A stretch of DNA of 39,498 nucleotides from positions 1 to 39,498 of the IMG/VR virus record IMGVR_UViG_3300033067_001759, one strand, 5' to 3'. This stretch comes from a virus. Taxonomy: Duplodnaviria > Caudoviricetes. Position numbers and translations under genes: made by a program. The notes below the pieces were generated by a model. That model ran no database searches. It saw nothing but the letters and a program-made list of their open reading frames with translations, and was not told the DNA's origin. This document shows positions 1-16,058 of the stretch, piece after piece. The first letter of the stretch is position 1. Every line of letters starts with the position of its first letter.

Positions 1-573
1 ATTGAATTAACAGATGGAAAAGTAGATGATCAGAAGGATATAAACGCATCATTTTTAAAACATCAGTTATCCAAAAAAGGTAAATTAAGTACAGAAAATT
101 CAGTAAAAAATACAGAAACTACAGATAATTCTGTTACATCACAACAAATATTAACCAGCAAACGCAATAAATCAACATCAGCAGGTACGGAAGAATCAGG
201 AAATGGATCACTTCATCAGTTAAATATTAAGAAAAAAGCGCTTGAAATTGAAAAGATTTCAGAAGAAACAGAACTTTTAAAGAAGAAAAATGAAAAAATG
301 GAAGGTGAATTAATACCAACTGGTATGGTTTCATCACTTCTTCAATTACATTTTTCCAGCGTATCTAGTCAATTTAAAAATTCTATTGAAAATATTTTAA
401 CAGAGTGGACCAAACGAAAAGATTTTAGCCGTGAAGAACTAGCGGAATTAAGAGGACAAATGACTGGTGAATTAAATAATTCAATAACAAAATCAGTAAA
501 AGAATCACAACGAAATTTGAATAAAGTACTGGAAGAATTTTCACTACGCAAAGGAGTTGGAGAAAGAATGTAA
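1..573 (+). CDS. terS: Terminase small subunit (Nu1-like), 5' partial
   Basis: Frame 1 is open from base 1 into the 298..573 ORF. LEIEKISEETELLKKKNEKMEGELIP resembles the coiled coil plus GELI motif of Nu1-like proteins. Lies upstream of a GpA-type terL. Confidence 0.65.
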   Translation: MELTDGKVDDQKDINASFLKHQLSKKGKLSTENSVKNTETTDNSVTSQQILTSKRNKSTSAGTEESGNGSLHQLNIKKKALEIEKISEETELLKKKNEKMEGELIPTGMVSSLLQLHFSSVSSQFKNSIENILTEWTKRKDFSREELAELRGQMTGELNNSITKSVKESQRNLNKVLEEFSLRKGVGERM

Positions 574-604
574 ACAAACAATTATTTAATATTTTCTATT
601 TAAA

Positions 605-1420
605 ATGCCACAATTATCACTATCAATCAGTCAAATTAAGTACATAGAAGCACACCGCTTAGAAGAAAGCGGCGCAGATATGGCGCGCAAATTTGGTGTA
701 TCAAAAAGTGTTGTAGGTGTTTATATGCGTAAGCATGGTTTAACTGTACCAAAATCAGTAGTAGGAAAATTTAAAGCCGAAGTTTTAAAAAACAGAACCA
801 CATCAGATGCAAAGACTGACAAATTTATAAAGAAAAATTATCTGCAGATGCCGATAAAATACATGGCGGCAAAGATAAACCGTTCTAATTGTTTCACTAG
901 AAAGCGTATGCAGCAACTTAATCTTATTGTTCCTGCAGAAATTATTGAACAACGAAAAAAAGACAGTCAGTTTAAGAAAGGACAGGAATCACATACAAAG
1001 GGAAAAAAAATGTCACCTGAAACTTACGAAAAAGTAAAAAAAACTATGTTTCAGAAAGGGCACATCACACATAATGCATATCCTGAAAATGGTACAATAG
1101 TAATCAGAAATGATAACAAAGGCAGACAATACAAATACATTCGTATTTCTTTAGGAAAATGGCAGTTGTTGCATCAGTACAATTACGAAAATAAATATGG
1201 AAAGATACCACCAGGACATTGTTTATGGTTTAAAGATGGTAATTCATTGAACTGTGAAGAAGAAAATATAGAACTAATTACCAGATCAGAAAATGCACGT
1301 CGGAACAGACAGAAGTTTCTGCAATTACCGGAAGAATTAAAAATGACTATAAAGATTGTATCAAAAATTAAACGAAAAATCAGAAAAAATGAGCACAAAA
1401 AACAAACTATCAGACCTTAA
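605..1420 (+). CDS. HNH endonuclease-family protein with N-terminal HTH
   Basis: FKKG/FQKGH repeats, then WQLLHQYNYENKYGKIPPGHCLWFKDGNSLNCEEENIELITRSENARRN (HNH_3-like pattern). Confidence 0.75.
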   Translation: MPQLSLSISQIKYIEAHRLEESGADMARKFGVSKSVVGVYMRKHGLTVPKSVVGKFKAEVLKNRTTSDAKTDKFIKKNYLQMPIKYMAAKINRSNCFTRKRMQQLNLIVPAEIIEQRKKDSQFKKGQESHTKGKKMSPETYEKVKKTMFQKGHITHNAYPENGTIVIRNDNKGRQYKYIRISLGKWQLLHQYNYENKYGKIPPGHCLWFKDGNSLNCEEENIELITRSENARRNRQKFLQLPEELKMTIKIVSKIKRKIRKNEHKKQTIRP

Positions 1421-1643
1421 CAATCACCTGTTCGAACAACTGGAAAGATTAAATGATGATGATTTAAAAGGCGAAGATCTTCAGAAAGAAATTGACCGGG
1501 CAAATGCTATGGCAGACATTGGTGGTGTAATTGTAAACAATGCCAAAGTGGTGCTAGCCGCATTCAAACGGATTAATCCGGATGGCGATGTGCTTCCTGA
1601 TATTTTTGAAAGCAGACAAATTGAAATAGGACATAAAAAATAG
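1389..1643 (+). CDS. Conserved small phage protein, commonly adjacent to HNH genes
   Basis: KNKLSDLNNHLFEQLERLND...EIDRANAM motif. The ATG at 1389 is the likelier start. Confidence 0.7.
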   Translation: MSTKNKLSDLNNHLFEQLERLNDDDLKGEDLQKEIDRANAMADIGGVIVNNAKVVLAAFKRINPDGDVLPDIFESRQIEIGHKK

Positions 1644-1645
1644 CC

Positions 1646-1873
1646 ATGCAATCACAACCAAAAACAGAATTTCAAAAATCATTCGAACAACTGCTGCAGC
1701 AGAATAAACAATTATTTGAAGATGTGGAACTAAATAGTAAAAGTGCAGATGAAGCTGCAATAGCATCAGCCAGTATTTTTCAGCAATTTATTAATAAAAT
1801 GCGCTATCCATCTGAACCTAAACTAAATATAATATCAGGAAATACAAATGAAAACACACAGGTATTAGTATAA
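1646..1873 (+). CDS. Hypothetical protein; its TAA stop is the core of the first array site
   Basis: 75-aa ORF starting 2 nt after the previous stop and ending in gtaTAAC. Confidence 0.6.
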   Translation: MQSQPKTEFQKSFEQLLQQNKQLFEDVELNSKSADEAAIASASIFQQFINKMRYPSEPKLNIISGNTNENTQVLV

Positions 1874-1998
1874 CGTCCGTCGGCTTTATCGTCGTTGCTT
1901 AGAATTAAAAAGAACCATTACAAATACACAAATACTATAAAATTATGAATACAGTTTTAGAAAATGCCGAAAGTAGCAATGCGTTAAAACCGATGTTA
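1871..1998 (+). repeat. attC-like hairpin site 1
   Basis: TAACgtccgTCGGctttatcgtcgTTGCT ... AGCAAtgcgttaaaaCCGAtGTTA. Confidence 0.75.
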
Positions 1999-2292
1999 GC
2001 ATTAGCCTTAACTTCACCTGCTTTAGAATGGCAATCAAATAGAAAAGGTCGTTGCAGTTATCCTGCAAATTTTAGAGGAAAAGTTCCTTTAAAAGTAAAA
2101 GTTGCTAAAAATGTAACTCCTGACTTACCAATGTTTAGTAATATTTTAGGAATACAGAAAGATGATATTTGCTTAAAAGACAACGAATACTATGTTTGGG
2201 TTAATTCTTATGGCGCAGTTTCCGCTATACTTCCAAATGGTAAAAAATTAGGATTACTACCTTCGGAATTCGATGTTACAGAATGGCACTAA
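1945..2292 (+). CDS. Cassette 1 hypothetical protein (starts inside the site 1 loop)
   Basis: 115-aa ORF. The unit is flanked by GTTAGCattagcctt and aaggttgatGCTAAC. Confidence 0.7.
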   Translation: MNTVLENAESSNALKPMLALALTSPALEWQSNRKGRCSYPANFRGKVPLKVKVAKNVTPDLPMFSNILGIQKDDICLKDNEYYVWVNSYGAVSAILPNGKKLGLLPSEFDVTEWH

Positions 2293-2304
2293 AAAGGTTG
2301 ATGC

Positions 2305-2397
2305 TAACGGTTGGGTATTTGTGTCAGGTTTTGCCTTGCACAATGCTCAATTCAAAGCACAAATGTTGATGGCAAAACTTGCACAAATACCTTGTTA
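2305..2397 (+). repeat. attC-like hairpin site 2
   Basis: TAACggttgGGTATTTGTGtCAGGTTTTGCC ... GGCAAAACTTGCACAAATACCttGTTA. Confidence 0.85.
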
Positions 2398-2468
2398 CCT
2401 GCTGATGCGGTTAATTATGGCAAAACTTTAATTGGAACACGAAACAAAAACATTTTAAATTTTAAGCG

Positions 2469-3044
2469 ATGGAAACAATTACAATTTTAATTATTTGCGG
2501 TTTTATGGGATGGTTTTTTGCTAAATCATTGCGAACTGAATCGACAAGTAAAAGCAATATTACCCGAATTGATGATAAGAATTGGATAGTGAACAACGAA
2601 TTTGTATCGTTTGAAGAAGATACTCCAATTCTTAGATTTAAACAGGAGATGGAAGATAATAAGCATTACCGCAATTATGAAAGCGAAAAACTAAGTAGGG
2701 ACAGAGAACGAATATTTAATGACTGGATGAAAACAACACAAGCCATTCACAAACACGCTGATTTGAAAAATTGTGTGACGGAAGAGAAGTTAGAAGCGAT
2801 AACAGAAAAATACGACAAGTATCTTTTTATGTGCAAAAAACTTGACGAAACAACAATGATATTGAGCAAGGAAGAATTTTTAATCAAAGAAGAAAACCCT
2901 GCGTTTTGTGTTGATTGGACTAATATGATGTGGTTTCCGAAACACTTAGGAATTTATGAAATACATAATGAAAAAACCGCAAGGTATTACAAGGGAAATA
3001 TGAATGAACTGATAGCAAAAGAATTTAAAACGAAATGGTATTAA
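2469..3044 (+). CDS. Cassette 2 protein with N-terminal membrane anchor
   Basis: Hydrophobic start METITILIICGFMGWFF; 191 aa. Confidence 0.7.
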   Translation: METITILIICGFMGWFFAKSLRTESTSKSNITRIDDKNWIVNNEFVSFEEDTPILRFKQEMEDNKHYRNYESEKLSRDRERIFNDWMKTTQAIHKHADLKNCVTEEKLEAITEKYDKYLFMCKKLDETTMILSKEEFLIKEENPAFCVDWTNMMWFPKHLGIYEIHNEKTARYYKGNMNELIAKEFKTKWY

Positions 3045-3118
3045 AAGTGCGTAGGCAAAAATTTAAAATGTTTTTTGAACCGAAATGTTATTGGGAACAC
3101 TAATGTAGCATTTGCAGG

Positions 3119-3243
3119 TAACGTTTTGCAGATACCCGAAGGAGGGATTAAGAAGTATAAAAATTAATATAACAAAAAATGTTTAATCGAAGCAAAAATG
3201 TTCATATAACCACTAAAACCCCTCTTTTGGGTATGTGCTGTTA
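3119..3243 (+). repeat. attC-like hairpin site 3
   Basis: TAACgttttGCAgATACCCGAAGGAGGG ... CCCTCTTTTGGGTATgTGCtGTTA. Confidence 0.85.
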
Positions 3244-3275
3244 TAAGCCGTTTTTCTTCACAAATCAACTTTAAA

Positions 3276-3533
3276 ATGATAACAGATAAATTAACAAGAG
3301 AACAACAGCAAGAGTTATTAAATACTCTTTTTGGATTTTACTTTGTAAACACCAATGATGACCATTGGGTATTGTATGACGAAGAAGGACATGAATTTTA
3401 CGGAAGTAATGAAAATTGTCAATTTGACTTTTCAACTCTTGCTGGTATATTTTCATATACTGCCCATAGAGCAAAAAATCAAGGGTATTCAGATTGTCAA
3501 TTTGCAATGCGTAAGGTTTTGGGTATCCGCTAA
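3276..3533 (+). CDS. Cassette 3 hypothetical protein
   Basis: 85-aa ORF with an A-rich leader, between GTTATAAGCCgtttt and aaaatGGCTTATAAC. Confidence 0.7.
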   Translation: MITDKLTREQQQELLNTLFGFYFVNTNDDHWVLYDEEGHEFYGSNENCQFDFSTLAGIFSYTAHRAKNQGYSDCQFAMRKVLGIR

Positions 3534-3542
3534 AATGGCTTA

Positions 3543-3747
3543 TAACGATTAACAGATTTATTTAGTTTTAAAAGTATTATTATGAGAAAACCAAAAGATA
3601 TTTTACATAAAAAATTGTATGCTTTTTTTATGATTTACGGTATAAAAACATCTGACAAATCAATACCATATATTGTTCAAGCAATGCAGGAATACGCAGA
3701 GGAATACCACCATTCCGAACTTTTAAAATTGAATAAATCTGATGTTA
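3543..3747 (+). repeat. attC-like hairpin site 4 (long coding loop)
   Basis: TAACgattaaCAGATTTATTtAGTTTTAAAAGT ... ACTTTTAAAATTgAATAAATCTGatGTTA. Confidence 0.8.
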
Positions 3748-3851
3748 TAAGTTCGGTTTGCAATCATACATGGAAACTTATGAGAAATACACACTATTTA
3801 TACAGATGCACAAAGTGTGGAATGCCAAACGAAATGCAAACTTACTTATAA
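3582..3851 (+). CDS. Cassette 4 small protein with C-terminal zinc-ribbon-like motif
   Basis: CNH...CTKCG motif. Reads through the right arm of site 4 as KLNKSDVISSVC; its stop is the next TAAC. Confidence 0.65.
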   Translation: MRKPKDILHKKLYAFFMIYGIKTSDKSIPYIVQAMQEYAEEYHHSELLKLNKSDVISSVCNHTWKLMRNTHYLYRCTKCGMPNEMQTYL

Positions 3852-3973
3852 CGTTTTGGGGCTTGTAGCAGTAGGGGATTTATAGCACTACTGTTCAACC
3901 TACCACCAAAGCTGATTAGAAGTACACAGCTCAAAATTTGCACTTCTGCCCCTATTGCTACAAACCCTTGTTA
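3849..3973 (+). repeat. attC-like hairpin site 5
   Basis: TAACgttttgGGGcTTGTAGCAGTAGGGG ... CCCCTATTGCTACAAaCCCttGTTA. Confidence 0.85.
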
Positions 3974-4013
3974 TGCGTTCGGGCTTTTGTTTAACGAATT
4001 AAATTTTAAAAAT

Positions 4014-4439
4014 ATGATAATAGCAATTGATTTTGATGGAACGTGTGTAACTCACGAATTTCCAAAAGTGGGAAAGGATATAAAAGCCGTTCCTGTACTA
4101 AAAGCATTGGTTGAAAATGGACACCAATTAGTATTATTCACAATGCGAAGTGATATAGTTAATCCTACTGGTGAGGATAACGAATTGCACCTTGAAAGTG
4201 GCAACTATTTAACCGATGCCGTTAATTGGTTCAAAGAAAATGAAATACCACTTTACGGAATACAAACTAATCCAACTCAACACACTTGGACTACAAGCCC
4301 AAAAGCTTATGCTCAAATGTATATTGATGATGCTGCATTAGGCTGTCCATTAACTTACGATAAAGAATATGCAGAACGTCCATTTGTGGATTGGACTGTT
4401 GTCGGTAATATGTTAAGGTGGAACGGTCTTTTAGCCTGA
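4014..4439 (+). CDS. Cassette 5 HAD-superfamily hydrolase (BT0820-like)
   Basis: IIAIDFDGT (motif I), LFTMR, SPKAYAQMYIDD (motifs III/IV). Confidence 0.85.
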   Translation: MIIAIDFDGTCVTHEFPKVGKDIKAVPVLKALVENGHQLVLFTMRSDIVNPTGEDNELHLESGNYLTDAVNWFKENEIPLYGIQTNPTQHTWTTSPKAYAQMYIDDAALGCPLTYDKEYAERPFVDWTVVGNMLRWNGLLA

Positions 4440-4443
4440 CGCA

Positions 4444-4571
4444 TAACGCTCTGGCGGCTTGCCGTTCGTTGGCGATTAAGAAGTAGAAAAATTCAAGATA
4501 GCAGAATATGAAAAAGAAACCAATAACTCCATTTAAACTGAAAACCGCCAATGACGGCAATGTGCCTGTTA
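4444..4571 (+). repeat. attC-like hairpin site 6
   Basis: TAACgctctGGCggcTTGCCGTtCGTTGGCG ... CGCCAATGACGGCAAtgtGCCtGTTA. Confidence 0.85.
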
Positions 4572-4759
4572 GCGGCAGTTTTATGAGTGTAGTTGCTTTG
4601 GAACGTCTAATTAAAAAGTGGAATGAAGATGCAGACAAAATAAAACTACTCACAGATGTAAAGGAAACAAAACATCAAAGAGAAGTAGCTAACCACTTTT
4701 TAATTCAGTTATACAAGTGTATAGGTGATGCAGAAGCGGAGTTGAAAAATTGCCGCTAA
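4508..4759 (+). CDS. Cassette 6 hypothetical protein (starts in the site 6 loop)
   Basis: 83-aa ORF; its stop is the TAA of the next core. Confidence 0.65.
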   Translation: MKKKPITPFKLKTANDGNVPVSGSFMSVVALERLIKKWNEDADKIKLLTDVKETKHQREVANHFLIQLYKCIGDAEAELKNCR

Positions 4760-4951
4760 CGTTTTGCAGATTTATTTAGTTTATTAATTTATACAATATG
4801 GAAGAAATTAAAAAGATACTTGAAGAAATAATGGATTATCAGATGAATAATGTTCAGTTAGCAAGAACTACTAAGCCATACTTATTGGCAAAGAAAGGAC
4901 TTGAAATTTTAAAAGGAACTGAAATTAATAAATTGAATAAATCTGATGTTA
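4757..4951 (+). repeat. attC-like hairpin site 7 (long coding loop, related to site 4)
   Basis: TAACgttttgCAGATTTATTtAGTTTATTAATTT ... AAATTAATAAATTgAATAAATCTGatGTTA. Confidence 0.8.
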
Positions 4952-5037
4952 TAAGTTCGGTTTGTGAGCATGAAAAAACATACTATTGCTTAGTTACTGG
5001 CGGAATGAGATGCAGAAAATGTAAAAGATGCTTATAA
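4798..5037 (+). CDS. Cassette 7 small protein with C-terminal zinc-ribbon-like motif
   Basis: KLNKSDVISSVCEH...CRKC; shares the arm-encoded peptide with cassette 4. Confidence 0.65.
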   Translation: MEEIKKILEEIMDYQMNNVQLARTTKPYLLAKKGLEILKGTEINKLNKSDVISSVCEHEKTYYCLVTGGMRCRKCKRCL

Positions 5038-5052
5038 CCACAAACTGACTTA

Positions 5053-5178
5053 TAACGTTGGTGCGCTTTGCGTCAGTTGCTGACTTAGAACCGCATATTT
5101 TCCAATAAACCAAAACAAAATTATGAAAACAAATAGTTCAAATACCACAGATTCAGCAATTGCGCAAAACGCCGGTTA
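5053..5178 (+). repeat. attC-like hairpin site 8
   Basis: TAACgttggtGCGcTTTGCGtCAGTTGCTGA ... TCAGCAATTGCGCAAAaCGCcgGTTA. Confidence 0.85.
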
Positions 5179-5641
5179 TGCGCTGCGCAAGAATGATTGT
5201 TTACGCACTCCAAAATATATTACGGATGCGCTCGGAACTTTCAATTTAGATCCGTGTGCTGGTGAACATACAAATATTGCAACTTTCAACCTTTGGGATG
5301 GTCGCGGCGAAAATGGATTAACGGCAGAATGGAACGGTTTTGTTTGGTGTAATCCGCCATTTTCTCAAAAAGAAATCTGGGCCCAAAAAATGATTGAGCA
5401 TAACAACGGAATTTTGATTTTGCCGGAACGCGGATCTGCTCCTTGGTTTGGACCATTAGCTAAAAAAACAGGATGTTATTTTGTTATGGGTAAAAAGATC
5501 AACTTCGAAGGCGGTAGTAGTTCTAATAATCTCGGAAGCATTTTATTTCCGTTCGGAGATCTTGCGGTACAAAGAATTGCTCAAAGCGGACTTCCGGGAC
5601 ATTTCGTGTCGGTTGAATGGTTCCGTGAGCGTCGCGCATAA
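5123..5641 (+). CDS. Cassette 8 phage DNA N6-adenine methyltransferase (phage Dam-like)
   Basis: TPKYITDALGTFNLDPCA, NGL, and the catalytic VWCNPPFS motif. Confidence 0.85.
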   Translation: MKTNSSNTTDSAIAQNAGYALRKNDCLRTPKYITDALGTFNLDPCAGEHTNIATFNLWDGRGENGLTAEWNGFVWCNPPFSQKEIWAQKMIEHNNGILILPERGSAPWFGPLAKKTGCYFVMGKKINFEGGSSSNNLGSILFPFGDLAVQRIAQSGLPGHFVSVEWFRERRA

Positions 5642-5735
5642 CGTTTTGCAGCTTGGTGTCTGTTATTTTGCCTTGCAGATACTTCAAGCATTAGATAAAA
5701 TTTATAGGCAAAATAATAGCACCAAATCGCTGTTA
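5639..5735 (+). repeat. attC-like hairpin site 9 (related to site 2)
   Basis: TAACgttttGCagcTTGGTGtCTGTTATTTTGCCT ... AGGCAAAATAATAGCACCAAatcGCtGTTA. Confidence 0.85.
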
Positions 5736-5770
5736 CCAGCAGTTAATATTCACAATTTAAAAACGAAAAT

Positions 5771-5998
5771 ATGATTTGGTATAAGATTGAAAACAAAAAG
5801 CCACTTGCCTATATGACTGGCGGATGGGATGGCAAAAAGAGCGACAAAGTATTAGTATGCACAAGAAGTGGTAGATACTACGTTGCGGAAATGTATGAAG
5901 GTATTTTAGATGGAAGCGAATTTTGCGACTTCTATGATGACCGAGATTTTGAAATTGAAAACGTGGCTTTTTGGACAGAGATTGATAGTCCGTTTTAA
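5771..5998 (+). CDS. Cassette 9 DUF551-like phage protein
   Basis: W..I..KKP...VLVC...Y.VA.....V.FW.EI..P pattern. Confidence 0.7.
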   Translation: MIWYKIENKKPLAYMTGGWDGKKSDKVLVCTRSGRYYVAEMYEGILDGSEFCDFYDDRDFEIENVAFWTEIDSPF

Positions 5999-6002
5999 TT
6001 GC

Positions 6003-6030
6003 TGGTAACATACAATATATACAGCAACCT
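6003..6030. other. Putative attI-like insertion site (lone core without a partner arm)
   Basis: tggTAACatacaatatatacagcaacc. It closes cassette 9, has A rather than G after TAAC, has no downstream GTTA arm, and lies about 55 bp before the recombinase. Confidence 0.55.
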
Positions 6031-6062
6031 ATCAAAATTATTAATAACCAAATAATTAAACC

Positions 6063-6899
6063 ATGAATATTCCCAAGTACATAGATTTATTCAGGAATGA
6101 AATTACCAGAAAAGGTTTTCGTCCGGCAACCATAAAAAACTATGTTAGCTGCATCGAATGCTTTCTACATTATTTTGAAGGTAAAGTTACGGAACCGGTA
6201 AAAATTAACGAACAACAGATCAAAGACTATCTGGCAACTTTTCAAACACAAAACACACAGCGCGCAAATCATTCTGCCATAAAATGTTTTTTTATATACA
6301 CACTGAAACAGCCAAACAAATTTAAATACATTGAATATTGCAAGCGCGATAGAAAATTACCGATTGTTTTATCTGTAGAAGAAATACAGAAACTATTTAA
6401 TGCCTGCACCAATGTAAAGCACAAAGCAATTTTGTCATTATTGTACAGCGCAGGGCTTCGAGTATCAGAAGTAATTAACCTGAAAATTACGCATATTGAC
6501 AGCAGCAGAATGATCATAAATATTATCAATGCAAAAGGTGGAAAAGACAGACAAGTAATGCTTAATCAAAACGTGCTGGAATTGCTGCGTACTTATTATA
6601 AAATGTACAAACCTAAAGAATATCTGTTTAACGGACAAAATTCACAGCAGTATTCTTCCAGAAGCATCAATGAGTTTTTAAAAACATATGCAGATAAAGC
6701 TGGCATTGAAAATAAAAGAATTTACGCACATCTGATGCGCCACACTTCATTTACGCACATGGTAGAAAACGGAACAGATATTAATCTTATTCAAAAATTA
6801 GCCGGACATTCTTCTGTAAAAACAACATTGCTGTACACGCACATCAGTCATAATCTAATAAAAAATATTCAATCACCAATTGCACAAATTAATTTGTAA
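6063..6899 (+). CDS. Integron-integrase-like tyrosine recombinase lacking the IntI-specific insertion
   Basis: N-terminal TIKNY SAM-like domain, LPIVLSVEE, GLRVSE, KGGKDR, HLMRH, LAGHSSVKTTLLYTH, terminal SP. R-K-H-R-H-Y residues are intact. Only a short linker precedes YLF. Confidence 0.9.
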   Translation: MNIPKYIDLFRNEITRKGFRPATIKNYVSCIECFLHYFEGKVTEPVKINEQQIKDYLATFQTQNTQRANHSAIKCFFIYTLKQPNKFKYIEYCKRDRKLPIVLSVEEIQKLFNACTNVKHKAILSLLYSAGLRVSEVINLKITHIDSSRMIINIINAKGGKDRQVMLNQNVLELLRTYYKMYKPKEYLFNGQNSQQYSSRSINEFLKTYADKAGIENKRIYAHLMRHTSFTHMVENGTDINLIQKLAGHSSVKTTLLYTHISHNLIKNIQSPIAQINL

Positions 6900-8902
6900 T
6901 GCTAGTTGATTATTCGAAATACCACCAAACATTACACGAAATTCTGGAATCTTTAGACATCCGATTTTCAGATATTAAGCCATCAGAATGGGTAGAGAGA
7001 AATCGGGTAATGACATCTGCAGAAAGCAGCATGCCGGGACCGTTTTCCTATAATCGTACACCATATTGCCGTGAAATTGTAGATTGTATGATGCCGGACC
7101 ATCCAGCACGTATCATTTCTGTGATGAAAGGCGCACAGATCGGATTTTCTACAGGTGTAATTGAACCGGCAATTGGTTGGATAATTGCAGAAAGTCCTGG
7201 AACTACCATGCTTTTAACTGGTCATTCAGACTTATCAGAAGAAGCAGTTACTAAAATTGATGGATTAATAGACAGTTGCGGAATCCGGCATTTGATAAAA
7301 CCAACTGTACAGCGTGCCAGAAACACAAAAACCGGTGATACCAATAATAAAAAAGAATTTGCCGGTGGTAGTTTAGTTTCTGGAAGCGCAGGCAATCATA
7401 AATTATTACGTCAGCGTTCTATCCGTTATGGTTTTATAGATGATTTTGATGCTGCAAAGAATAAGTCAAAAGAATCAGGTAGCACGCGTAAAATGATTGA
7501 AAAACGTTTTGCTGCTTATGATGATAAGATGAAGCTGTACTACATTTCCACACCAGAAACACGGCCATCGAATATTGAAGAGGTTTATTTACTTGGTGAT
7601 CAGCGGAAATGGCATGTTCCATGTCCATGTTGCGGTGAAATGATAGTATTAGAATGGTCAATACCTATCGAAAATTCAAAAGAAACCGCTGGAATTACAT
7701 ATAGATTAAATGAAAATAACCGTTTAATTCATGAAAGTGTTGGTTACATATGTCAAAAATGTGGCGATTTCTTTACAGAAAAACATAAATACGACATGAA
7801 TTTGAATGGCAAATGGATTCCAACAGCTATTCCATACCAGGAAGGAAACTATTCTTACCATATTTCTGGATTAAATGCACCACCTAGTAATGCCGGTTGG
7901 GAACAATGTGTGCTGGATTATCTGGAAGCAAATCCACCTGATGGCAATCGTAAGGAAGATTTGCATCAAACTTTTATGAATTTATGCCTAGGTGAAGCTT
8001 ATGAAATTTCTGCAGAAGAAATTAAAGCGACAGAACTGCAGAAGAATATCAGAAATTATGAAATAGGCATTATACCTGAAAAATTATCTATAGAAGATGG
8101 CAACGGTAAAATAGTAATGCTCACGCTAGGTTGCGACTTAAACGGAAAGCTGGATGATGCGCGTTTAGATTTCGAAATTGTTGCGCATTCAGAAAATGCT
8201 GCTACTTATTCTATTTTACACGGAAGCATCGGAACATTTATACCACGTGAAGGCAAAAACGGAATAGATCGGGAAAGATGGACATATCAGCACGGCATGG
8301 AAAAAAGCGTATGGAAAGAATTGGAAAATATTTTACTGAAAAAATATGCAACTGATACTGGCAGAAATATAATGATAGCAGCTGCAGGTATAGATATTGG
8401 ATATGAAACAGAACACGCATGGCAATATATCAATAAAACTAATCATTTTTTTGTAGTTGGTTTAAAAGGAAAGGATATTAATAAATATGTTCCGCTTAAC
8501 AGAGATGCTAAAACTTTTAAAAAATCGTTGGAAAATCCTAAACTGTATCTGGTAGAATCCAATATTTGTAAAGATAAGCTGGCAGAACTGATGCGCTTAA
8601 AGTGGGACAAATCGCTTTCTGATGTGCAGCCTTCCGGATTTATGAATTATCCGGTGCCATCCGGCGGAAAATACCTGTTTGATAATTACTTTTCACATTT
8701 CGAAGCAGAACATCGAAAAATTGACAAAGACGGCCATTACCGCTGGCTAAAAAAATCAGACATGCACCAGAACCACTTGTTTGACTGCCGCATTTATGCC
8801 AATACTGTACGTGATGTATTAGTATGGAACATCTGCAAAGAAATGAAAATACAGAACGGCACCTGGACAGACTATTGTGATATTTTATTAAAAAGAAGAT
8901 AG
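6899..8902 (+). CDS. terL: Terminase large subunit, lambda GpA family
   Basis: GPFSYNRTPY, MKGAQIGFS, YISTP, GDQRKWHVPCPCCG, YICQKCG, NHLFDC. Confidence 0.95.
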   Translation: MLVDYSKYHQTLHEILESLDIRFSDIKPSEWVERNRVMTSAESSMPGPFSYNRTPYCREIVDCMMPDHPARIISVMKGAQIGFSTGVIEPAIGWIIAESPGTTMLLTGHSDLSEEAVTKIDGLIDSCGIRHLIKPTVQRARNTKTGDTNNKKEFAGGSLVSGSAGNHKLLRQRSIRYGFIDDFDAAKNKSKESGSTRKMIEKRFAAYDDKMKLYYISTPETRPSNIEEVYLLGDQRKWHVPCPCCGEMIVLEWSIPIENSKETAGITYRLNENNRLIHESVGYICQKCGDFFTEKHKYDMNLNGKWIPTAIPYQEGNYSYHISGLNAPPSNAGWEQCVLDYLEANPPDGNRKEDLHQTFMNLCLGEAYEISAEEIKATELQKNIRNYEIGIIPEKLSIEDGNGKIVMLTLGCDLNGKLDDARLDFEIVAHSENAATYSILHGSIGTFIPREGKNGIDRERWTYQHGMEKSVWKELENILLKKYATDTGRNIMIAAAGIDIGYETEHAWQYINKTNHFFVVGLKGKDINKYVPLNRDAKTFKKSLENPKLYLVESNICKDKLAELMRLKWDKSLSDVQPSGFMNYPVPSGGKYLFDNYFSHFEAEHRKIDKDGHYRWLKKSDMHQNHLFDCRIYANTVRDVLVWNICKEMKIQNGTWTDYCDILLKRR

Positions 8903-8905
8903 ATT

Positions 8906-9307
8906 ATGAAAGCAAATGTATTAAGGATTGGAAACCATATTGAATATTATATGGAAGATTCACAGGATGAAAGACAAAAATGGTGGGAACTTGATGTAGT
9001 TGATGCAGAAACAATTTTGCATTTTCAATCATATCCGGATGATACAGATTATAGACCTATTCCACTAACTGAAGAATGGCTGATTAAGTTCGGATTTGAA
9101 AAAGATGATACAGGCGTAGATATGTTTGATCAGGATTATCATGAATGGTATCAAAAAGAATTTCCAATTATTGGAGTTCTTTGCCAAAGTAGCGATAAAG
9201 AATATTTATTTGATGAAAATACCGATAAGCTAAGGATTAAATACGTTCATCAACTACAAAATTTATATTTTGCATTAACAAGTGAAGAATTAATTTATAA
9301 AAATTAA
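8906..9307 (+). CDS. Conserved Bacteroidota-phage hypothetical protein
   Basis: LRIGN...PIPLTEEWLIKFGF...IKYVHQLQNLYFALT motifs. Confidence 0.75.
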   Translation: MKANVLRIGNHIEYYMEDSQDERQKWWELDVVDAETILHFQSYPDDTDYRPIPLTEEWLIKFGFEKDDTGVDMFDQDYHEWYQKEFPIIGVLCQSSDKEYLFDENTDKLRIKYVHQLQNLYFALTSEELIYKN

Positions 9308-9310
9308 ATA

Positions 9311-9327
9311 AAAAGTGTTGCACTTTT
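9311..9327. promoter_or_regulatory. Palindromic operator candidate
   Basis: AAAAGTG-ttg-CACTTTT just upstream of a small DNA-binding-like ORF. Confidence 0.4.
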
Positions 9328-9351
9328 AATTTATTATGCTTAATATTGTGC

Positions 9352-9522
9352 ATGGCAAAGGACAAACGCGCCAATAATGGCGGCAAAGGTGGCAGAAAAA
9401 AGATGTTTGAAGAAGGTACAGAACGTATCACAGTAGCAGTACCGGCACCTAAAAAGCAAGAATACAAAGAAAAAATAGAAGAATTTATACAGATAAAATA
9501 CAAAAAAGACAAAGAATTATGA
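9352..9522 (+). CDS. Small basic DNA-binding-like protein (not in ORF track)
   Basis: MAKDKRANNGGKGGRKKMFEEGTERITVAVPAPKKQEYKEKIEEFIQIKYKKDKEL; ATGA overlap with the next gene. Confidence 0.65.
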   Translation: MAKDKRANNGGKGGRKKMFEEGTERITVAVPAPKKQEYKEKIEEFIQIKYKKDKEL

Positions 9523-10082
9523 AAAAAATCATCATTACCGCATGCTTGTTTATGTTGACAGCATCCGCATTTTCTCTACAATTAGCTATTACAGCTACTT
9601 CATTTGATACATCAGCAACAGTAGAACCTGGAAGTGCTCAATGGGCCAATATAAAGTTTGTAGCAGGACCGTATGTTGGTTCCGATCGTCTTCAAATTTT
9701 TATACAGTACAAAGACGCCAACGGATTTTATAATGGTCAGCTGGTAAAATGCTTTGATACGGCATTCTATCCGTTTTATTTTAATCTTCCGGAAAATACA
9801 GATTTAACCAGACGTGTAAATTTTAATTTGCCTGCTACTGCACTTGGCCGTGCTTTTAAAATAATGGTAAACCTTGCACCAACTACATTTTACGGCATTT
9901 TTAATTATACACCGATTATCAGTAGCATTAAAAACAATATAAATAGAAACCAGCCGGTTAAAGAAGTACAATACTTTAACTTTGCCGGGCAACCGCTTTC
10001 AGAACCTGATGGCTTATGCATCCGTAAAACCATCTATGAAGATGAATCATTTGAAAGCAAACAAGTTTTTATAGTAAAATAG
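9519..10082 (+). CDS. Secreted protein with signal peptide and T9SS C-terminal-domain-like tail
   Basis: Signal MKKIIITACLFMLTASAFS. C-terminus ISSIKN...VQYFNFAGQ...GLCIRKTIYED...KQVFIVK. Confidence 0.6.
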   Translation: MKKIIITACLFMLTASAFSLQLAITATSFDTSATVEPGSAQWANIKFVAGPYVGSDRLQIFIQYKDANGFYNGQLVKCFDTAFYPFYFNLPENTDLTRRVNFNLPATALGRAFKIMVNLAPTTFYGIFNYTPIISSIKNNINRNQPVKEVQYFNFAGQPLSEPDGLCIRKTIYEDESFESKQVFIVK

Positions 10083-10089
10083 AATTATT

Positions 10090-10290
10090 ATGTTTATAAC
10101 AGATGATGGATTTCAATTACAAAAATACGGAATGTGGTTTGTAGTTACTCATAATTCTGAAACTACAAATAGTATTCCAGCCAATAATGCTATTATTGGT
10201 GTAAATAATAATAGTTATTCAAATTTATTTCTAAAAGAAGAAAATGCAATTAAATTTATAGAATTATTACAAAATAATAATTCCAAATAA
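10090..10290 (+). CDS. Hypothetical protein
   Basis: 66-aa ORF in operon position, converging on the reverse-strand operon. Confidence 0.45.
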   Translation: MFITDDGFQLQKYGMWFVVTHNSETTNSIPANNAIIGVNNNSYSNLFLKEENAIKFIELLQNNNSK

Positions 10291-11025
10291 ATCATCCACT
10301 TCCACTAGCTTCTGTCTGTAATCTTTCAGGTAATAACCGGATTTAGTTTCATCAGAATAGTAATCCTGCAATAGCTGGCTGCGTTCAATATTTGCTTTTG
10401 CAGAAGAATTGCGCGCTTTTCGTTCAATATCTTTGCGAACCCAGCTGTAATGATGCATTGGCGCATCCATTAATTCTGTATTGTATAAATTTAAACATAC
10501 ATCATTTATTTGTATTTTCCGTGTAGGATCTACATAATACGGATAGTATTTTGCACCGGCAAACGTGCTTTCTTTTAGTTCATGGATAAACGGCACGTAA
10601 TAATTGTCCGGCGCTTCCAGACGTAATGTTGGCTTTTTAAAATAGGTCATTATTTTGCAAACAGATCCTTTTGCACCGGATGCCAGAAACTGCTGTTTCA
10701 TGCCGCCAAAATTTTCATAGTATTCATCACAGTCCAAATGCAGAAAGTGTGTGCATCCTTCTTCTTTGGCATACTGCAGGCCTAAATTACGTTTCAGTAT
10801 CTCATTTTCAGTTCCACAATATCTTCTCGGTTCATATTTTACCAGCAATACTTCACAACCAAAGTCCGGCACTTTAAAATCATCCATCGGATTATACCGT
10901 TCACCAAAGTTGGAAACATCCTGCCACACCAGGATAAAAATATCTACTTCATCCTTCAGGCATTTCATACTGCCGTACAGCAGTTCAACACCATCCCAAA
11001 CATTATAAATGGCGGCTAATTTCAT
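10267..11025 (-). CDS. Glycosyltransferase, GT-A fold (GT2-like)
   Basis: MKLAAIYNVWDG start, KRNLGLQYA, HLDCDEY (DxD), MHHYSWVR. Confidence 0.75.
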   Translation of the reverse strand: MKLAAIYNVWDGVELLYGSMKCLKDEVDIFILVWQDVSNFGERYNPMDDFKVPDFGCEVLLVKYEPRRYCGTENEILKRNLGLQYAKEEGCTHFLHLDCDEYYENFGGMKQQFLASGAKGSVCKIMTYFKKPTLRLEAPDNYYVPFIHELKESTFAGAKYYPYYVDPTRKIQINDVCLNLYNTELMDAPMHHYSWVRKDIERKARNSSAKANIERSQLLQDYYSDETKSGYYLKDYRQKLVEVDDLFGIIIL

Positions 11026-11300
11026 TCTTTACAAGTTGGTTCAGGTAGTTCTTTACTATCATTTCCACGTTGTGGCTTATTTTGTAATTCTCTTAAATAG
11101 ACTTTTGCCCAATTTTTAAGGTAATCAGCAGTCGCTTTTTTACCTTCATGAAATCCAATCTGATAAATTTCATCATTAGATGCATATTGATCAGTGCGGC
11201 ATTGTTTAATACCATCGGATTTTCCGAAAAAATACCCGGATAAAAATGCCAGTAATCCAACAACCGGTATGGCAATAGATAAAATTGTTTGTAATTCCAT
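11022..11300 (-). CDS. Small membrane-anchored protein
   Basis: N-terminal TM segment; ATGA-coupled to the downstream gene. Confidence 0.65.
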   Translation of the reverse strand: MELQTILSIAIPVVGLLAFLSGYFFGKSDGIKQCRTDQYASNDEIYQIGFHEGKKATADYLKNWAKVYLRELQNKPQRGNDSKELPEPTCKE

Positions 11301-11306
11301 AATTTT

Positions 11307-11900
11307 TTATTTACACAAAATGATATTTTCAGCGTTTAAATACTTTGTTTGTAAACCAAATGGTTCAAGTTTACTTACAATTTCTACAATACGTTCATCG
11401 TGCTCAATGCAAATCATTTCTATCTGTTGCCAGAACCAATCCGGAATAGCATTAAAAATTTGCATGTTGGTAGCTTCCGTATCAATGCTGATAAAGCTGG
11501 CATCTTTGCCATGCGCTTCCAGAAATTCTACGACATGCAGCTGCGGAACTTTAATAGTTTGAAAATTAACACCACCTTTCTGCCACTTTTCTTTATGTTC
11601 CTGCACTGATGTAGAAACAGCATCACCACCGGAAGAATAGAATTCCAGTTCTTCATTTGAAACACCGATGGCAACATTCAGCACTGTAATGCGTGGTATA
11701 TTTTCGTAATGTTCGGCGATTGCTTTATAGTTTATTGGATCCGCTTCAACCAACACACCATTCCATCCTTCTTCAAAAAGTTTGCGCGTATTGGATAACT
11801 GAAATACATGAAAAGCGCCGATGTCAATAAATTTTCCAACCTTGTTTTTTTTGGCAAAATATTCCGTAATAATCTGTTCTTCTTTGTTTTGTGAGTACAT
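11307..11900 (-). CDS. FkbM-family SAM methyltransferase
   Basis: YSQNKEE, FIDIGA, SNT..L...GWNGVLVEA, FISIDTE, ICIEH. Confidence 0.9.
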   Translation of the reverse strand: MYSQNKEEQIITEYFAKKNKVGKFIDIGAFHVFQLSNTRKLFEEGWNGVLVEADPINYKAIAEHYENIPRITVLNVAIGVSNEELEFYSSGGDAVSTSVQEHKEKWQKGGVNFQTIKVPQLHVVEFLEAHGKDASFISIDTEATNMQIFNAIPDWFWQQIEMICIEHDERIVEIVSKLEPFGLQTKYLNAENIILCK

Positions 11901-11906
11901 AAATGC

Positions 11907-12476
11907 TTATTTTATAATGACTAATACATCATCAAAACGGTTCAGAATATGCCTTCTGTCCAGAATGGTGACTGTTTTACTTTTATCAATATTTTCAAAA
12001 GCGGCCCGGCTTTTATCAATGTCTTCAATGTCTTCAATAATGTAAATGCCACTTGGTGCCAGGTATTCTTTGTAAATTTGGTACAGCTTAAGTTGCTGTT
12101 CCAGCGAGTGGTTTGCATCTTCAATAATGACATTGAACTTCTTACCATAAAAATGAAAATCCACTTCTTCAGGGTTTTCCGCATCAAATATTTTAATGGT
12201 ATGTTCACCGCTTTTAATCATTTCGCGCAAATCTGCCATGCCATCGTGTGGTGTTTCGTGGCAATCCACACCAATTACATCTGCAAATTCAAAATACTGT
12301 TCCCACAAGCGTAAAGAATTTCCTTTAAACACACCGATTTCCAGCACTTTATTGGCTGTTTTACGATATGGTTCCAGGAATTCTTCATACACATCAATAT
12401 AACTGTGTACGGTGCCTTTGTCCGTTTCAAATCCCTGTTGCTGCAGTGTTTGAAATATGTTTTTTAATGTGTTCAT
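11907..12476 (-). CDS. Class I SAM-dependent (sugar O-) methyltransferase
   Basis: TDKGTVHSYIDVYE, VLEIGVFKGNSLRLW, IIEDANH, GIYIIEDI. Confidence 0.85.
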   Translation of the reverse strand: MNTLKNIFQTLQQQGFETDKGTVHSYIDVYEEFLEPYRKTANKVLEIGVFKGNSLRLWEQYFEFADVIGVDCHETPHDGMADLREMIKSGEHTIKIFDAENPEEVDFHFYGKKFNVIIEDANHSLEQQLKLYQIYKEYLAPSGIYIIEDIEDIDKSRAAFENIDKSKTVTILDRRHILNRFDDVLVIIK

Positions 12477-13333
12477 AATGGATATCTTTTGCCTGCTATT
12501 TCTACCTGATTATCCATTTTTTCATAACCTAAATTTTCAGGATGTCCTAAGTTTATAATAATTCCTTCTGAAAGCCAACTGGCAACCGAACCGGTGCTGC
12601 TTCTGTTTTTTATATACCAGAAACATTTCGAAAATAACCAAACCATAAGCGCAGGTTGCATGCCGCGTTCAAATCCGCTTATTGGAATATGTCTTTCAGG
12701 ATTATCCAGGCTGCCAAGCGGCGAAGAATGAAATTCATCAATATTAAATGACTGCGGATAACGGTCCAGCAGCGGCTGCAAAATGGTTTCTTCTTCTGCT
12801 GTACACATGATGCGCGCATCTGGTGTAGCTTCCAGTGCCAAATCTATGTATTTAAAATACGTTTCAATTGGCATCCGCGGACGGCCATCTGTTACGTTAT
12901 CCGTTCCGCGCCAGGTAATACCAATAGTTTTAGAAAAATTTATGTTGTATTTTTCTACTATCTGTTGTCCGCGCTGGTTAACCACATCATTAAAATGCAG
13001 GTATTTTTTGTAATATTCTTTAATGACATCCAACGGTTGTGCCATAAACGGCACAGGGCTGCTATCCTGCCAGTTTTCCCAAGTCCATACTTCAGTTGCC
13101 GGTTGAACTTCTTTTATTTTTGGCTGTGTAAAATACCACTCAAACATATTTGGAATCGTCGAAAACTTTTCAGTATCGTGGTATGGTAGCAGCGCGCGTG
13201 GCGGTGTATGTCCATCCGGCCAGTTAATGTAAACGTCTTTTCCCTGTTGTTCTGCTGCCCACATTTGCCAGAATGCACAGTAAATCCATGTGGTTAAGGT
13301 AGCTGCAACGTCTGTTTTTTCTAAATAAATCAT
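12473..13333 (-). CDS. NodZ/fucosyltransferase-like glycosyltransferase
   Basis: NMFEWYFTQP, IGITWRGTD (H/W-x-R-G-T-D GDP-fucose motif), LFSKC..YI...SS. Confidence 0.65.
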   Translation of the reverse strand: MIYLEKTDVAATLTTWIYCAFWQMWAAEQQGKDVYINWPDGHTPPRALLPYHDTEKFSTIPNMFEWYFTQPKIKEVQPATEVWTWENWQDSSPVPFMAQPLDVIKEYYKKYLHFNDVVNQRGQQIVEKYNINFSKTIGITWRGTDNVTDGRPRMPIETYFKYIDLALEATPDARIMCTAEEETILQPLLDRYPQSFNIDEFHSSPLGSLDNPERHIPISGFERGMQPALMVWLFSKCFWYIKNRSSTGSVASWLSEGIIINLGHPENLGYEKMDNQVEIAGKRYPL

Positions 13334-14031
13334 TGTATCAGTTTTTGTAATTCATATTCATAACTTGCCGTTAAATCTTTTGTAGTATCAGTGCTGTCAA
13401 CTTTTCCGGTAGAAAAATCTATAGTTTGCCAGGTACGATGAAAACCAAATGGAAATTCACGTAAATATTTTGGATTACGGTTTCCGCCCTGTGCAAAATC
13501 ACATGCCTGTTCTTTAGTTGCAAACTTAAAGTGACTAAAAGATTTATTCAAACACAATACACCATCTTCATAATAACCTAATCCTTGCTGCAATATTTCA
13601 GTATCTTCAAAAGATTCATTCCAATCTGGTAATAATTCTGCTGCATATTGCATAAGTTTTTTAGACCGCAAAGAAAATCCACCGCTTCCAACCCCATCAA
13701 ATTGTACAAATAATGGTCCTATATAATCCAGTTCCAGCCATTCCATTTTAAATGATTGCGCATTTAATATCCAGCCATCACGTTGTACAATCAATAAATT
13801 TGGCGTGTCAATATATTGATGCAGCTTTTTAAGCATAAAAACAGAATACATTACTAAAGAAGTCAGCGGCATAATTTCTACACGGTGTTCAGATTCTGCC
13901 GGAAGATGTGTTAGCAGCTTCACAGCACCAAAATCAGCCTTTTGTTTACAGATTTCCAGCACCATTGCCGCGCGGTTTGCATCTACGCAGTCAACACAAA
14001 CTAATGTAACTGTAGGTAATTGTAGTTTCAT
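13330..14031 (-). CDS. DUF5672-like putative glycosyltransferase
   Basis: LPTVTLVCVD, YSVFMLKKL..YIDT..LLIVQRDGWILN, DYIGP, VGSGGFSLRSKKL, ED, PFGFH. Confidence 0.75.
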   Translation of the reverse strand: MKLQLPTVTLVCVDCVDANRAAMVLEICKQKADFGAVKLLTHLPAESEHRVEIMPLTSLVMYSVFMLKKLHQYIDTPNLLIVQRDGWILNAQSFKMEWLELDYIGPLFVQFDGVGSGGFSLRSKKLMQYAAELLPDWNESFEDTEILQQGLGYYEDGVLCLNKSFSHFKFATKEQACDFAQGGNRNPKYLREFPFGFHRTWQTIDFSTGKVDSTDTTKDLTASYEYELQKLIQ

Positions 14032-14621
14032 TTATTGCTTATAAATCTGTAGTGATACAATATTTTTTCTGTGTAAAATTCATTTTTTAGTAATCCCGAT
14101 TTGTGTATTTGTTTGGACCAGTCATGATCTTCACCAAAATTCTTTTCAGGAAACTTAAACTGTTTGGCAATTTCCGCCCGAATGCAGTTCAAATGATTTG
14201 GATAACGTTCGTATTTTACAAAGTTGTCTGTGGTTTTCCATTCATTATATTTTAAAGAATGTTCGAAAATTTCTGGATTGTTACCGTTGGTAGTCATTAT
14301 GCCACGTAAAGAAACTACATCAGGTTCTGTTGCTAATGCCGTTCTGATAGTAGAAATATAATCGCTTTTTGGAAAATCATCATCATCAAAGGAGCAAATA
14401 TATTTACCTTCTGCAGCTTTTAAAAGTCTGTTTCTTTTAGCACCTAAGCATAAATTTTCATCTTTATCCATTAAAATTTCTATATCAGAAAAAATGTATT
14501 TTTTAATTTCACCAATAGTAATACGTAAATTACCACCTATTTGTATTTCAAATTCACTTAAAAGTGAATACAGCATTTCTTTTCTGCTGCTTATAGTAGG
14601 TATTAAAATAGATAGCATCAT
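14028..14621 (-). CDS. Glycosyltransferase family 2
   Basis: LSILIPT..R, GAKRNRLL..AEGKYICSFDDDD, FGEDHDW. Confidence 0.85.
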   Translation of the reverse strand: MMLSILIPTISSRKEMLYSLLSEFEIQIGGNLRITIGEIKKYIFSDIEILMDKDENLCLGAKRNRLLKAAEGKYICSFDDDDFPKSDYISTIRTALATEPDVVSLRGIMTTNGNNPEIFEHSLKYNEWKTTDNFVKYERYPNHLNCIRAEIAKQFKFPEKNFGEDHDWSKQIHKSGLLKNEFYTEKILYHYRFISNK

Positions 14622-15268
14622 AGTGGAAAATTTACAGATTTACGTTTATAATAAGTTAGCTTTCCAGAATCCCAGTGTTGATTATTTCGTAAATAAGTAG
14701 CATCCTTTTCTGCTTTTCCGTTGCAATAATGATGATGTGGAAATACAAGTGTTGGAACTTCCAATAGCCAGTTGTTATTTTTGCTGGTCCAGTATAAATC
14801 CTGGTCAACAAACATAGATTTGTATTGCGGATGCCATAAATAACCTAGCTTATTATACAAAGTCCGGTTCATTATTGGTATGGTAATAATATCTACTTCA
14901 AATTTCTGTAAAGCATCGTCTGTTTTTAAAATCAATGGCTTTTCCATGCCAGCATCTAAAAAAATACGGATTATTTTTTCATCCCATCCGGCAGGACAAA
15001 CAAAATCATCTGATAGATAAACTAGAATATCACCGGTCGCAACAGATGCAGCTAAATTCGTAGCTTCTACTAAACAACTGTTATTATTTTCTATAATACA
15101 AGATCTTGTAAAAAGCAATCTATATTTAGAAATTTCAGGATCATCAGTATCTAATGATAAAACATGTTCAATTTCAAACATCAAACTACTGCAATTAAGC
15201 CAATTCATAAAAGTATGATAAGCTTTCATGGCACGTCCGCGCGATGGATGTATTAAAGATATTTTCAT
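14618..15268 (-). CDS. Glycosyltransferase, GT-A fold
   Basis: ISLIHPSRGR, ATN..A..ATGDILVYLSDD, Y.SMFVD.DL, HHH. Confidence 0.8.
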   Translation of the reverse strand: MKISLIHPSRGRAMKAYHTFMNWLNCSSLMFEIEHVLSLDTDDPEISKYRLLFTRSCIIENNNSCLVEATNLAASVATGDILVYLSDDFVCPAGWDEKIIRIFLDAGMEKPLILKTDDALQKFEVDIITIPIMNRTLYNKLGYLWHPQYKSMFVDQDLYWTSKNNNWLLEVPTLVFPHHHYCNGKAEKDATYLRNNQHWDSGKLTYYKRKSVNFPL

Positions 15269-16054: not shown

Positions 16055-16058
16055 ACAC

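Follow-up and report, generated by a model that had tools for sequence, protein, structure and literature searches.

Nine hairpins upstream of a phage recombinase

The window analysed here is the whole of a virus record (IMGVR_UViG_3300033067_001759, 39,498 bases). It belongs to a tailed phage whose relatives are linked to Bacteroidota, and it encodes terminase, portal, major head, tail sheath and tape measure proteins. A run of small genes is followed by nine short open reading frames (ORFs) separated by hairpins, each of which begins with TAAC and ends with GTTA; then come a lone TAAC at 6006 and a tyrosine recombinase gene, with the large terminase gene beyond. The hairpins, which are the subject of this report, were located over the whole window by aligning every TAAC arm with every GTTA arm in reverse complement. 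Between 1800 and 6000 this gave nine sites and one overlapping alternative at a score of at least 6, compared with a mean of 0.43 and a maximum of 2 such pairs in 60 dinucleotide shuffles of that region. An ungapped repeat search was rejected as a detector because most of the hairpins were missed. All nine sites, each on the + strand, contain TAAC/GTTA, the motif on which agreement with the core boxes (RYYYAAC ... GTTRRRY) of a canonical attC site, the recombination site of integrons, was scored. They are the boundaries of mobile gene cassettes.

A sequence-only reading of this DNA had described four extra bases on the TAAC arm, next to the core, in eight sites and three in site 2, and a further unpaired T in sites 1, 2, 6, 8 and 9. 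That description of the nine hairpins is accurate. The surplus of bases, referred to here as the offset, is GTTT in four of the nine sites, and the extra T lies 18, 16, 18, 17 and 17 nt after TAAC, respectively, in the five sites that have one. The near-constant mark of these sites, which the same reading missed, is a G-T mispair. It is present in all nine, 15 nt from GTTA in eight of them and 16 nt in site 6. The individual features are given in Table 1.

Table 1. Hairpin sites (from the start of TAAC to the end of GTTA) and adjoining features of the window
Feature	Position	Strand	Length	Offset (bases)	Extra T	Mispairs	Remarks
Site 1	1871..1998	+	128 nt	4, GTCC (1875-1878)	1892	G1894-T1980	ORF 1945-2292 starts in loop
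Site 2	2305..2397	+	93 nt	3, GGT	2324	G2327-T2379	
Site 3	3119..3243	+	125 nt	4, GTTT	none	G3141-T3225; second G-T three bases nearer core	
Site 4	3543..3747	+	205 nt	4, GATT	none	G3565-T3729; T-G two bases nearer core	ORF 3582-3851 starts in loop
Site 5	3849..3973	+	125 nt	4, GTTT	none	G3871-T3955	No second defect at positions 9-14
Site 6	4444..4571	+	128 nt	4, GCTC	4465 or 4466 (run of two T)	G4468-T4552	ORF 4508-4759 starts in loop
Site 7	4757..4951	+	195 nt	4, GTTT	none	G4779-T4933; T-G two bases nearer core	ORF 4798-5037 starts in loop
Site 8	5053..5178	+	126 nt	4, GTTG	5073	G5076-T5160	G replaces T before GTTA; DNA adenine methyltransferase ORF 5123-5641 starts in loop
Site 9	5639..5735	+	97 nt	4, GTTT	5659	G5662-T5717	
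Predicted attI-like site	6006..6030	+					Lone TAAC without partner arm, then AT-rich motif
Tyrosine recombinase	6063..6899	+	278 aa				R133, K158, H223, R226, H249 and Y258 intact; IntI insertion absent

In four places the stop codon of the preceding ORF is the TAA of the TAAC core (1871-1873, 3849-3851, 4757-4759 and 5639-5641), and the first of these stops belongs to a backbone gene (1646-1873). Sites 4 and 7 (units 3543-3853 and 4757-5057) are about 200 nt long, and only 101 nt separate GTTA from the next TAAC. The ORFs of these two units share the stretch LNKSDVISSVC, which is encoded by the right arm.

The bulge, the mispair and the extra T in related sites

The comparison set consisted of loci surrounding related recombinases, 80 of them viral and 27 from genomes. 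Offsets from -8 to +8 were scanned in 108 sequences, with no value presumed and a score of at least 8. On the coding strand of the recombinase the offset was +4 in 137 cases, +3 in 74, +2 in 24, and 0 or +1 in one. There were 244 sites in 519 kb upstream of the recombinase compared with 20 in 722 kb downstream. Removal of near-copies reduced 253 upstream sites to 182, and 20 with offsets outside 2-5 were left out, giving the 162 family sites; window site 1, whose score of 6 is below the threshold, was added to these by hand. The family sites form 60 clusters at 70% right-arm identity, and their lengths fall around 70-74, 85-92, 115-131 (most) and 195-205 nt. As they were chosen by complementarity, a second set of 152 sites was picked by a short sequence signature only, to avoid circularity. 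The canonical control was the Vibrio phage integron named in PMC9892861, with 14 attC sites (published work is cited throughout from those parts that are openly readable).

In the signature-picked set, 137 of the 152 sites pair at six or more of eight positions, compared with 15.6 ± 3.3 when arms were swapped between sites. Their offsets were +4 in 70, +3 in 46, +2 in 15, +5 in three, 0 in two and +7 in one, ie +2 to +4 in 131 of 137, and positions held out of the selection paired in 74% and 91%. The offset was 0 in all 14 Vibrio sites. Family sites therefore do not have the near-symmetric unpaired spacer (offset 0 or +1) of canonical attC. In a strict Watson-Crick view an internal loop with unequal sides (5x1 in 67 of the 162 sites, 5x2 in 34, 6x2 in 18 and 4x1 in nine) takes the place of the bulge; if the first G is paired with the T before GTTA (G-T in 35 of 36), the loop becomes a clean 4-nt bulge one base from the core. 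A common fold with a 4-nt bulge at this position was also returned by RNAalifold on a MAFFT alignment of 36 offset-4 sites.

Covariation in a larger alignment had been proposed as a check on the sequence-only reading, and the outcome was divided. The arm-swap result bears it out, as do the alignment cells changed on both sides (235 compared with 66.5 in shuffles), a count made circular by selection of the 36 sites for complementarity. The number of pairs with changes on both sides, in the same complementarity-picked alignment, was not above that in shuffles (17 compared with 16.3; 217/500). Conservation of the arms is one of pairing and not of sequence, as in canonical attC. The accompanying statement that primary sequence otherwise diverges was too strong, however. 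Mean arm identity among the nine window sites is 42%, but fixed positions exist, and the emphasis on structure rather than sequence overlooked five conserved positions which match canonical attC anchors. These are the G after TAAC (97% of the 162 sites) and, numbered from the core on the right arm, A1 (98%), T7 (97%), A or T at 8 (100%) and A15 (95%). A15 is retained in two well-filled reading frames (47/48 and 13/13) and in sites without an ORF (92/99). It is kept whatever the frame, and coding constraint was therefore rejected as the cause of the conserved bases.

At position 15, a + strand G faces a T in 145 of the 162 family sites. G-T and T-G together account for 90%, and a Watson-Crick pair is found in only 7%, whereas the neighbouring positions (14 and 16-19) are 94-98% Watson-Crick. 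In the signature-picked set the G faces the conserved T in 113 of 117 sites. Twenty held-out sites from bacterial genomes were selected without regard to position 15 or to pairing; six of these candidates are unpaired, and the 14 that pair all have offset 4 and the G-T at 15, four of them with an extra T. In all 14 sites of the Vibrio control the last extra base is an A (a bottom-strand T). Its position is 17 where two extra bases precede it and 16 where one does, which in either case is 14 stem steps from the core. Read by eye, the aadA7 primer in the supplement of PMC9892861 likewise has a T after 14 stem steps, and that base is named T23 (PMC5027507). The mispaired T of the family shares its arm and strand with canonical T23/T24 and is likewise separated from the core by 14 stem steps. 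Bound in cis, T24 prevents attack in the L box (PMC5027507).

The extra T is much less regular. It occurs in 16 of the 162 family sites, five of them in the window and one each in 11 other loci; any extra base on the TAAC arm occurs in 40. An extra base and a mismatch at positions 9-14 are nearly exclusive, the mismatch being found in seven of the 40 sites with an extra base and in 95 of the 122 without. The same exclusion holds in the signature-picked set (7/28 compared with 74/91, Fisher p 8e-8, a value that overstates independence because the family sites are related). The mismatch is usually a second G-T, and neither defect is present in 27 of the 162. Because the two so nearly exclude each other, the extra T counts as one version of a second defect that is itself optional. 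A place for it in the core of the code, as had been claimed, is not supported: it is absent from four of the nine window sites and from 146 of the family sites, and its arm is the one with the cut AAC, opposite to that on which canonical extrahelical bases lie by definition (PMC2727003). The two or three canonical extrahelical bases of the R''-L'' arm (G16, T20, T23/T24) were found in none of the nine window sites and in all 14 Vibrio controls; a right-arm gap was chosen in 15 of the 162 family sites, at scattered positions. Descent of the extra T from a single recent lineage was considered and is unsupported, the right arms of extra-T sites being 44% alike compared with 41% for all sites.

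For searches at genome scale a plain IUPAC pattern was rejected, its counts being below those of a reversed-pattern control in four of five genomes and about equal in the fifth. The pattern was unspecific, and a covariance model of the family sites was therefore used instead. All nine window sites were recovered with it, exclusively on the + strand; the Vibrio integron record gave no match up to E 1. Matches were found in 32 of 61 genomes sampled from the phylum Bacteroidetes, with up to 36 sites per genome; long arrays lie in assemblies G002:C12, G017:C12 and G052:C28 (36, 29 and 27 matches per genome). The loci found with the model had the G-T at position 15 in 12 of 12 cases, with offset 4 in nine and 3 in three, figures that are partly circular and not independent. 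In loci L110, L114 and L116 a related recombinase (40-44% identity) is near the array, which in L110 and L116 it faces from the opposite strand. The array of locus L063 (about 2500-7700), which lies upstream of a single recombinase, has six opposite-strand sites and then others of the usual orientation. The proposal of a distinct structural code is supported to the extent that the sites have a signature unlike that of canonical attC, as seen in the offset, the covarying arms, the recombinase described below and the blindness of the model to Vibrio sites. It is not supported for the extra T, and it lacked the G-T mispair and the conserved bases; the function that these marks would have is considered in the last section.

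Cassettes, recombinase and folding strand

Evidence for mobility of the cassettes came from contigs of public assemblies (runs X1, X2, X3, X4 and X7). A contig from X1 joins 2309 to 3119, so that cassette 2 is absent and the joint lies in the shared TAACG. Positions 4441-4759 are matched without difference in an X2 contig, inside other sequence, and 3543-3853 is matched as a unit in X4, again in another context. The phage backbone ends at the TAACG of site 1: contigs from X3, X4 and X7 stop matching at 1875, and those from X4 and X7 continue into other hairpin-like sequence. The backbone resumes at 6006, where the X3 and X7 contigs start to match. Array content and order therefore change at a fixed point, as they do in an integron. 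Stretches shared between loci start at TAAC in 26 of 30 cases. In 132 cassettes, the 8 nt that follow GTTA are complementary to the 8 nt preceding the next TAAC (5.8/8) and not to those of their own site (2.4/8). The lone TAAC at 6006 is predicted to be an insertion site corresponding to the attI of an integron; the AT-rich motif is found about 55 nt before the recombinase in most of the 34 related loci inspected by eye.

Near-identical hairpins occur elsewhere with different sequence after GTTA (2397, 3973 and 5735), and some cassette bodies are joined to another hairpin. New cargo seems to be attached to existing hairpins.

The recombinase scores 153 bits against the integron integrase model TIGR02249, for which the cut-off is 265, and is 26% identical to a Vibrio IntI (278 compared with 320 aa). 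Two blocks of the Vibrio IntI are missing from it and from 53 aligned family members, and the insertion that holds the I2 element is absent. The predicted structure (mean pLDDT 92) has VchIntIA (2a3v) as its best match (Z 23.4, rmsd 3.4, 267 aligned); XerA (5hxy) matches about equally (Z 22.5) and is the best sequence match among solved structures. The closest genome relatives are in Bacteroidota assemblies. Four residues, G191, Q192, Y197 and S201, are invariant in 58 sequences and are placed where IntI has its insertion. It is a guess that this patch reads the marks on the hairpin.

The + strand folds better than the other in 140 of the 162 family sites, by a mean of 2.4 kcal/mol; for canonical attC bottom strands the figure is 2.12 kcal/mol (PMC5027507). 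A G after AAC is a canonical bottom-strand feature (PMC2727003). With TAAC-G on the 5' arm, T-GTTA on the 3' arm, better folding, and breaks at the 5' TAAC, the + strand would be the analogue of the attC bottom strand. The cassette ORFs lie on this folding strand in 139 of 141 cases, with the hairpin in front of the gene, and the ORF starts in the loop in 63 of the 162 sites. In an integron the genes are read away from attI and the site is behind the gene, which is not the arrangement of these cassettes. Elsewhere in the window a - strand gene block (10267-16075) lies between terminase and tail sheath; by eye, its translated members are glycosyl- and methyltransferase-like.

Proposed mechanism and alternative explanations

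We think it probable that the hairpins are attC-like sites which are cut as a folded single strand by the adjacent recombinase that lacks I2, with the bulge of 2-4 nt and the fixed G-T as the predicted marks of strand and position. By analogy with IntI, folding of the + strand would take place while it is unpaired during replication, or in a cruciform. The TAAC/GTTA box would be occupied by one monomer, with cleavage between A and C as for IntI (PMC7439510). The freed strand would run into the bulge, whose unpaired slack could allow a nearly homology-free exchange with the attI-like site or with another hairpin; the bulge might also hinder re-ligation, a role proposed for the canonical unpaired spacer. 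A second monomer may bind a box starting 6 nt from the 3' core, where N-T-W is conserved. The mispair, G-T on the + strand and C-A on the other, would identify the correct strand and may keep the second monomer from acting. The extra T would be one version of a second, optional distortion lying 2-6 bp closer to the core; a second G-T, an extra A, G or C, or another mismatch can take its place. The T may tune binding but cannot be required.

Several observations, in addition to the pair count and the relatedness of the sites mentioned above, weigh against this scheme. Only position links the recombinase to the sites. The + strand folds better in only six of the nine window sites, and for sites 6, 8 and 9 the DNA fold of lowest energy leaves the TAAC/GTTA core unclosed in register. 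At position 6, 47 of the 162 family sites (29%) have a C-A mismatch on the + strand, which favours the other strand, and once position 15 is set aside the wobbles on the + and - strands are near even (125 compared with 101). Of 27 ends of shared stretches, seven are at TAAC, two at GTTA and 18 elsewhere. Many sister contigs break at GTTA ends (2397, 3973 and 5735), and some match a cassette body without its hairpin; the GTTA-end breaks may reflect re-use of hairpins when cassettes form, or some cutting at the other arm. Finally, deletion of the extrahelical bases from canonical sites costs little in bottom-strand recombination (PMC5027507, PMC2727003), so that conserved marks need not be essential. 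The C-A mismatch at position 6 sits at the first base of the second box.

Folded DNA could be the substrate even if the fixed G and T were read as ordinary sequence contacts, or did no more than bias folding, the bulge then being the sole structural mark. The two bases hardly vary (G-T in 35 of 36) and so yield no covariation from the pair, T7 and W8 are conserved in sequence too, and the enzyme is without the insertion which in IntI binds flipped bases (PMC7790495). A reading of one base, however, leaves the facing base free to pair, yet it seldom does so, and the position of the mispair equals that of the canonical flipped T. We regard this explanation as unlikely, though deserving of some weight.

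The geometry might instead have been selected in RNA. The + strand would be the message, in which G-U is tolerated, and the stem would control translation or termination of the cassette genes, with recombination using the short TAAC cores only. The strand of the ORFs and their frequent start in the loop agree with this and, with 139 of 141 ORFs on the folding strand, antisense cases cannot separate DNA from RNA roles, a further point against our preferred scheme. There is, however, one mispair at one distance from the core and not a scatter of G-U pairs; that distance is fixed relative to GTTA and not to the start codon; and C-A at position 6 is common. Terminator-like matches in 1700-6100 were at the level of shuffles (4 compared with 2.8 ± 1.7), and no family of described structured RNAs in Rfam, for which Flavo-1 was the lead, reached its gathering threshold in positions 1-10000 of the window, where the one match had E 0.38 and 23.5 bits against a cut-off of 44. 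A promoter scan of 1700-6100 was also at shuffle level (15 compared with 18.3). Selection in RNA is accordingly improbable.

Slightly less credible still is the code as originally proposed, in which a 4-nt bulge and an extrahelical T act together and sequence is unimportant. Both features are real, and the extra T is spread over 12 of 58 loci and 13 clusters (70% identity), almost always in the context G-T-C or G-T-T-C, as well as in bacterial genomes (four of 14). Nevertheless it is missing from four of nine sites beside a single enzyme and from the great majority of family sites, which have other defects or none in its place, and the fixed G-T and the five conserved bases are far more constant.

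That a canonical host IntI acts on these as aberrant attC sites, and that the enzyme encoded next to them is an unrelated phage integrase, can be largely dismissed: the core boxes, the G after AAC, A1 and T7 do match canonical attC, and IntI1 recombines sites without extrahelical bases (PMC2727003), but the arrays lie directly upstream of a recombinase family with a conserved attI-like motif, extra bases on the AAC arm lowered IntI1 bottom-strand recombination in two of the three sites examined (PMC5027507), Bacteroidetes seldom have complete integrons and attC-based tools report few there (PMC9024848), and a published family-type site was not integrated by IntI1. This last is P12002L_attC1 of Polaribacter phage P12002L; of six phage sites tried with IntI1, it alone was not integrated (Qi et al. 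2023, PMC9892861). It is a short site with offset 3 and leads a methyltransferase gene on the folding strand; in our own reading its printed arms contain an extra T and a G-T mispair. The text and tables consulted from that paper, which concerns phage CALINs, treat it as an ordinary attC without integrase and do not describe the bulge, the mispair or the short recombinase.

The published 'attC2' of P12002L (locus L108) lacks an upstream partner arm of the family type, and appears to be the distal end of the methyltransferase cassette that attC1 leads (29223-29250, 30008-30056); this would explain the 'divergent' attC sites of that paper. Further family-like sites are at 38879-38936, 32491-32695 and 14502-14625.

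Like integron attC sites of the VCR type and attCaadA7, the family sites have the TAAC/GTTA core, the G after AAC, a 5-nt spacer and T7 on the R'' side, covarying arms and a variable loop. They share with attC a purine-rich strand (loops are 49% A) that would be the one cut and that folds better in most family sites, complementary cassette ends, lengths of about 70-130 nt and, 14 stem steps along the R''-L'' arm, a conserved T. They differ in an offset of +2 to +4, in a spacer that is mostly paired beyond the bulge and in a length of about 200 nt for some sites. Nor have they a regular extrahelical R''-L'' base (there is no equivalent of G16); the distal T faces a G, and the optional extra base is on the opposite arm. 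The genes are on the folding strand, directed towards the insertion site and often starting in the loop. The recombinase has the tyrosine recombinase fold of IntI but is shorter and lies downstream of the array in the direction of the cassette genes; it lacks I2 and scores below the TIGR02249 cut-off. Family sites likely work as attC sites do, while departing from them in extrahelical bases, spacer symmetry and gene orientation and in the absence of I2 from the enzyme. The absence of I2 is shared with the Xer system, for which a folded single strand can serve as substrate, as in the IMEX of CTX phage (PMC7790495). There, however, the folded strand mimics a dif duplex for host XerCD, whereas here the boxes are 60-200 nt apart, the arms vary freely and the defects are fixed.

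In the literature searched (openly readable text, figures excepted) no description of the geometry of these sites was found. What is new here is the ranking of the extra T as an optional, interchangeable defect, the matching of the wobble T to T23/T24, and the tying of a published IntI1 negative to a family site. In a broader and more tentative view, a widespread recombinase of Bacteroidota and their phages, lacking I2, may shuffle cassettes on folded single-stranded DNA by means of the bulge and the G-T wobble, whose T would be the evolutionary counterpart of the flipped T23/T24 in integrons; such an enzyme might be a living intermediate between Xer and IntI. I2 is held to enable integron integrases to act on folded single strands, for which direct proof is lacking because its deletion kills IntI1 (PMC7790495). 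An intact enzyme without I2 adjoins hairpins with marks of their own, and the role of I2 can therefore be addressed by the standard conjugation assay, for which the ranking of the marks, with bulge and G-T near-constant and the extra T optional, indicates which mutants come first. If the scheme is correct, single-strand cassette recombination would not need I2. The geometry of the family would help to explain why attC-based tools report few integrons in Bacteroidetes (PMC9024848) and, with matches in about half of the genomes sampled (32/61), a large pool of cassettes may be unannotated.

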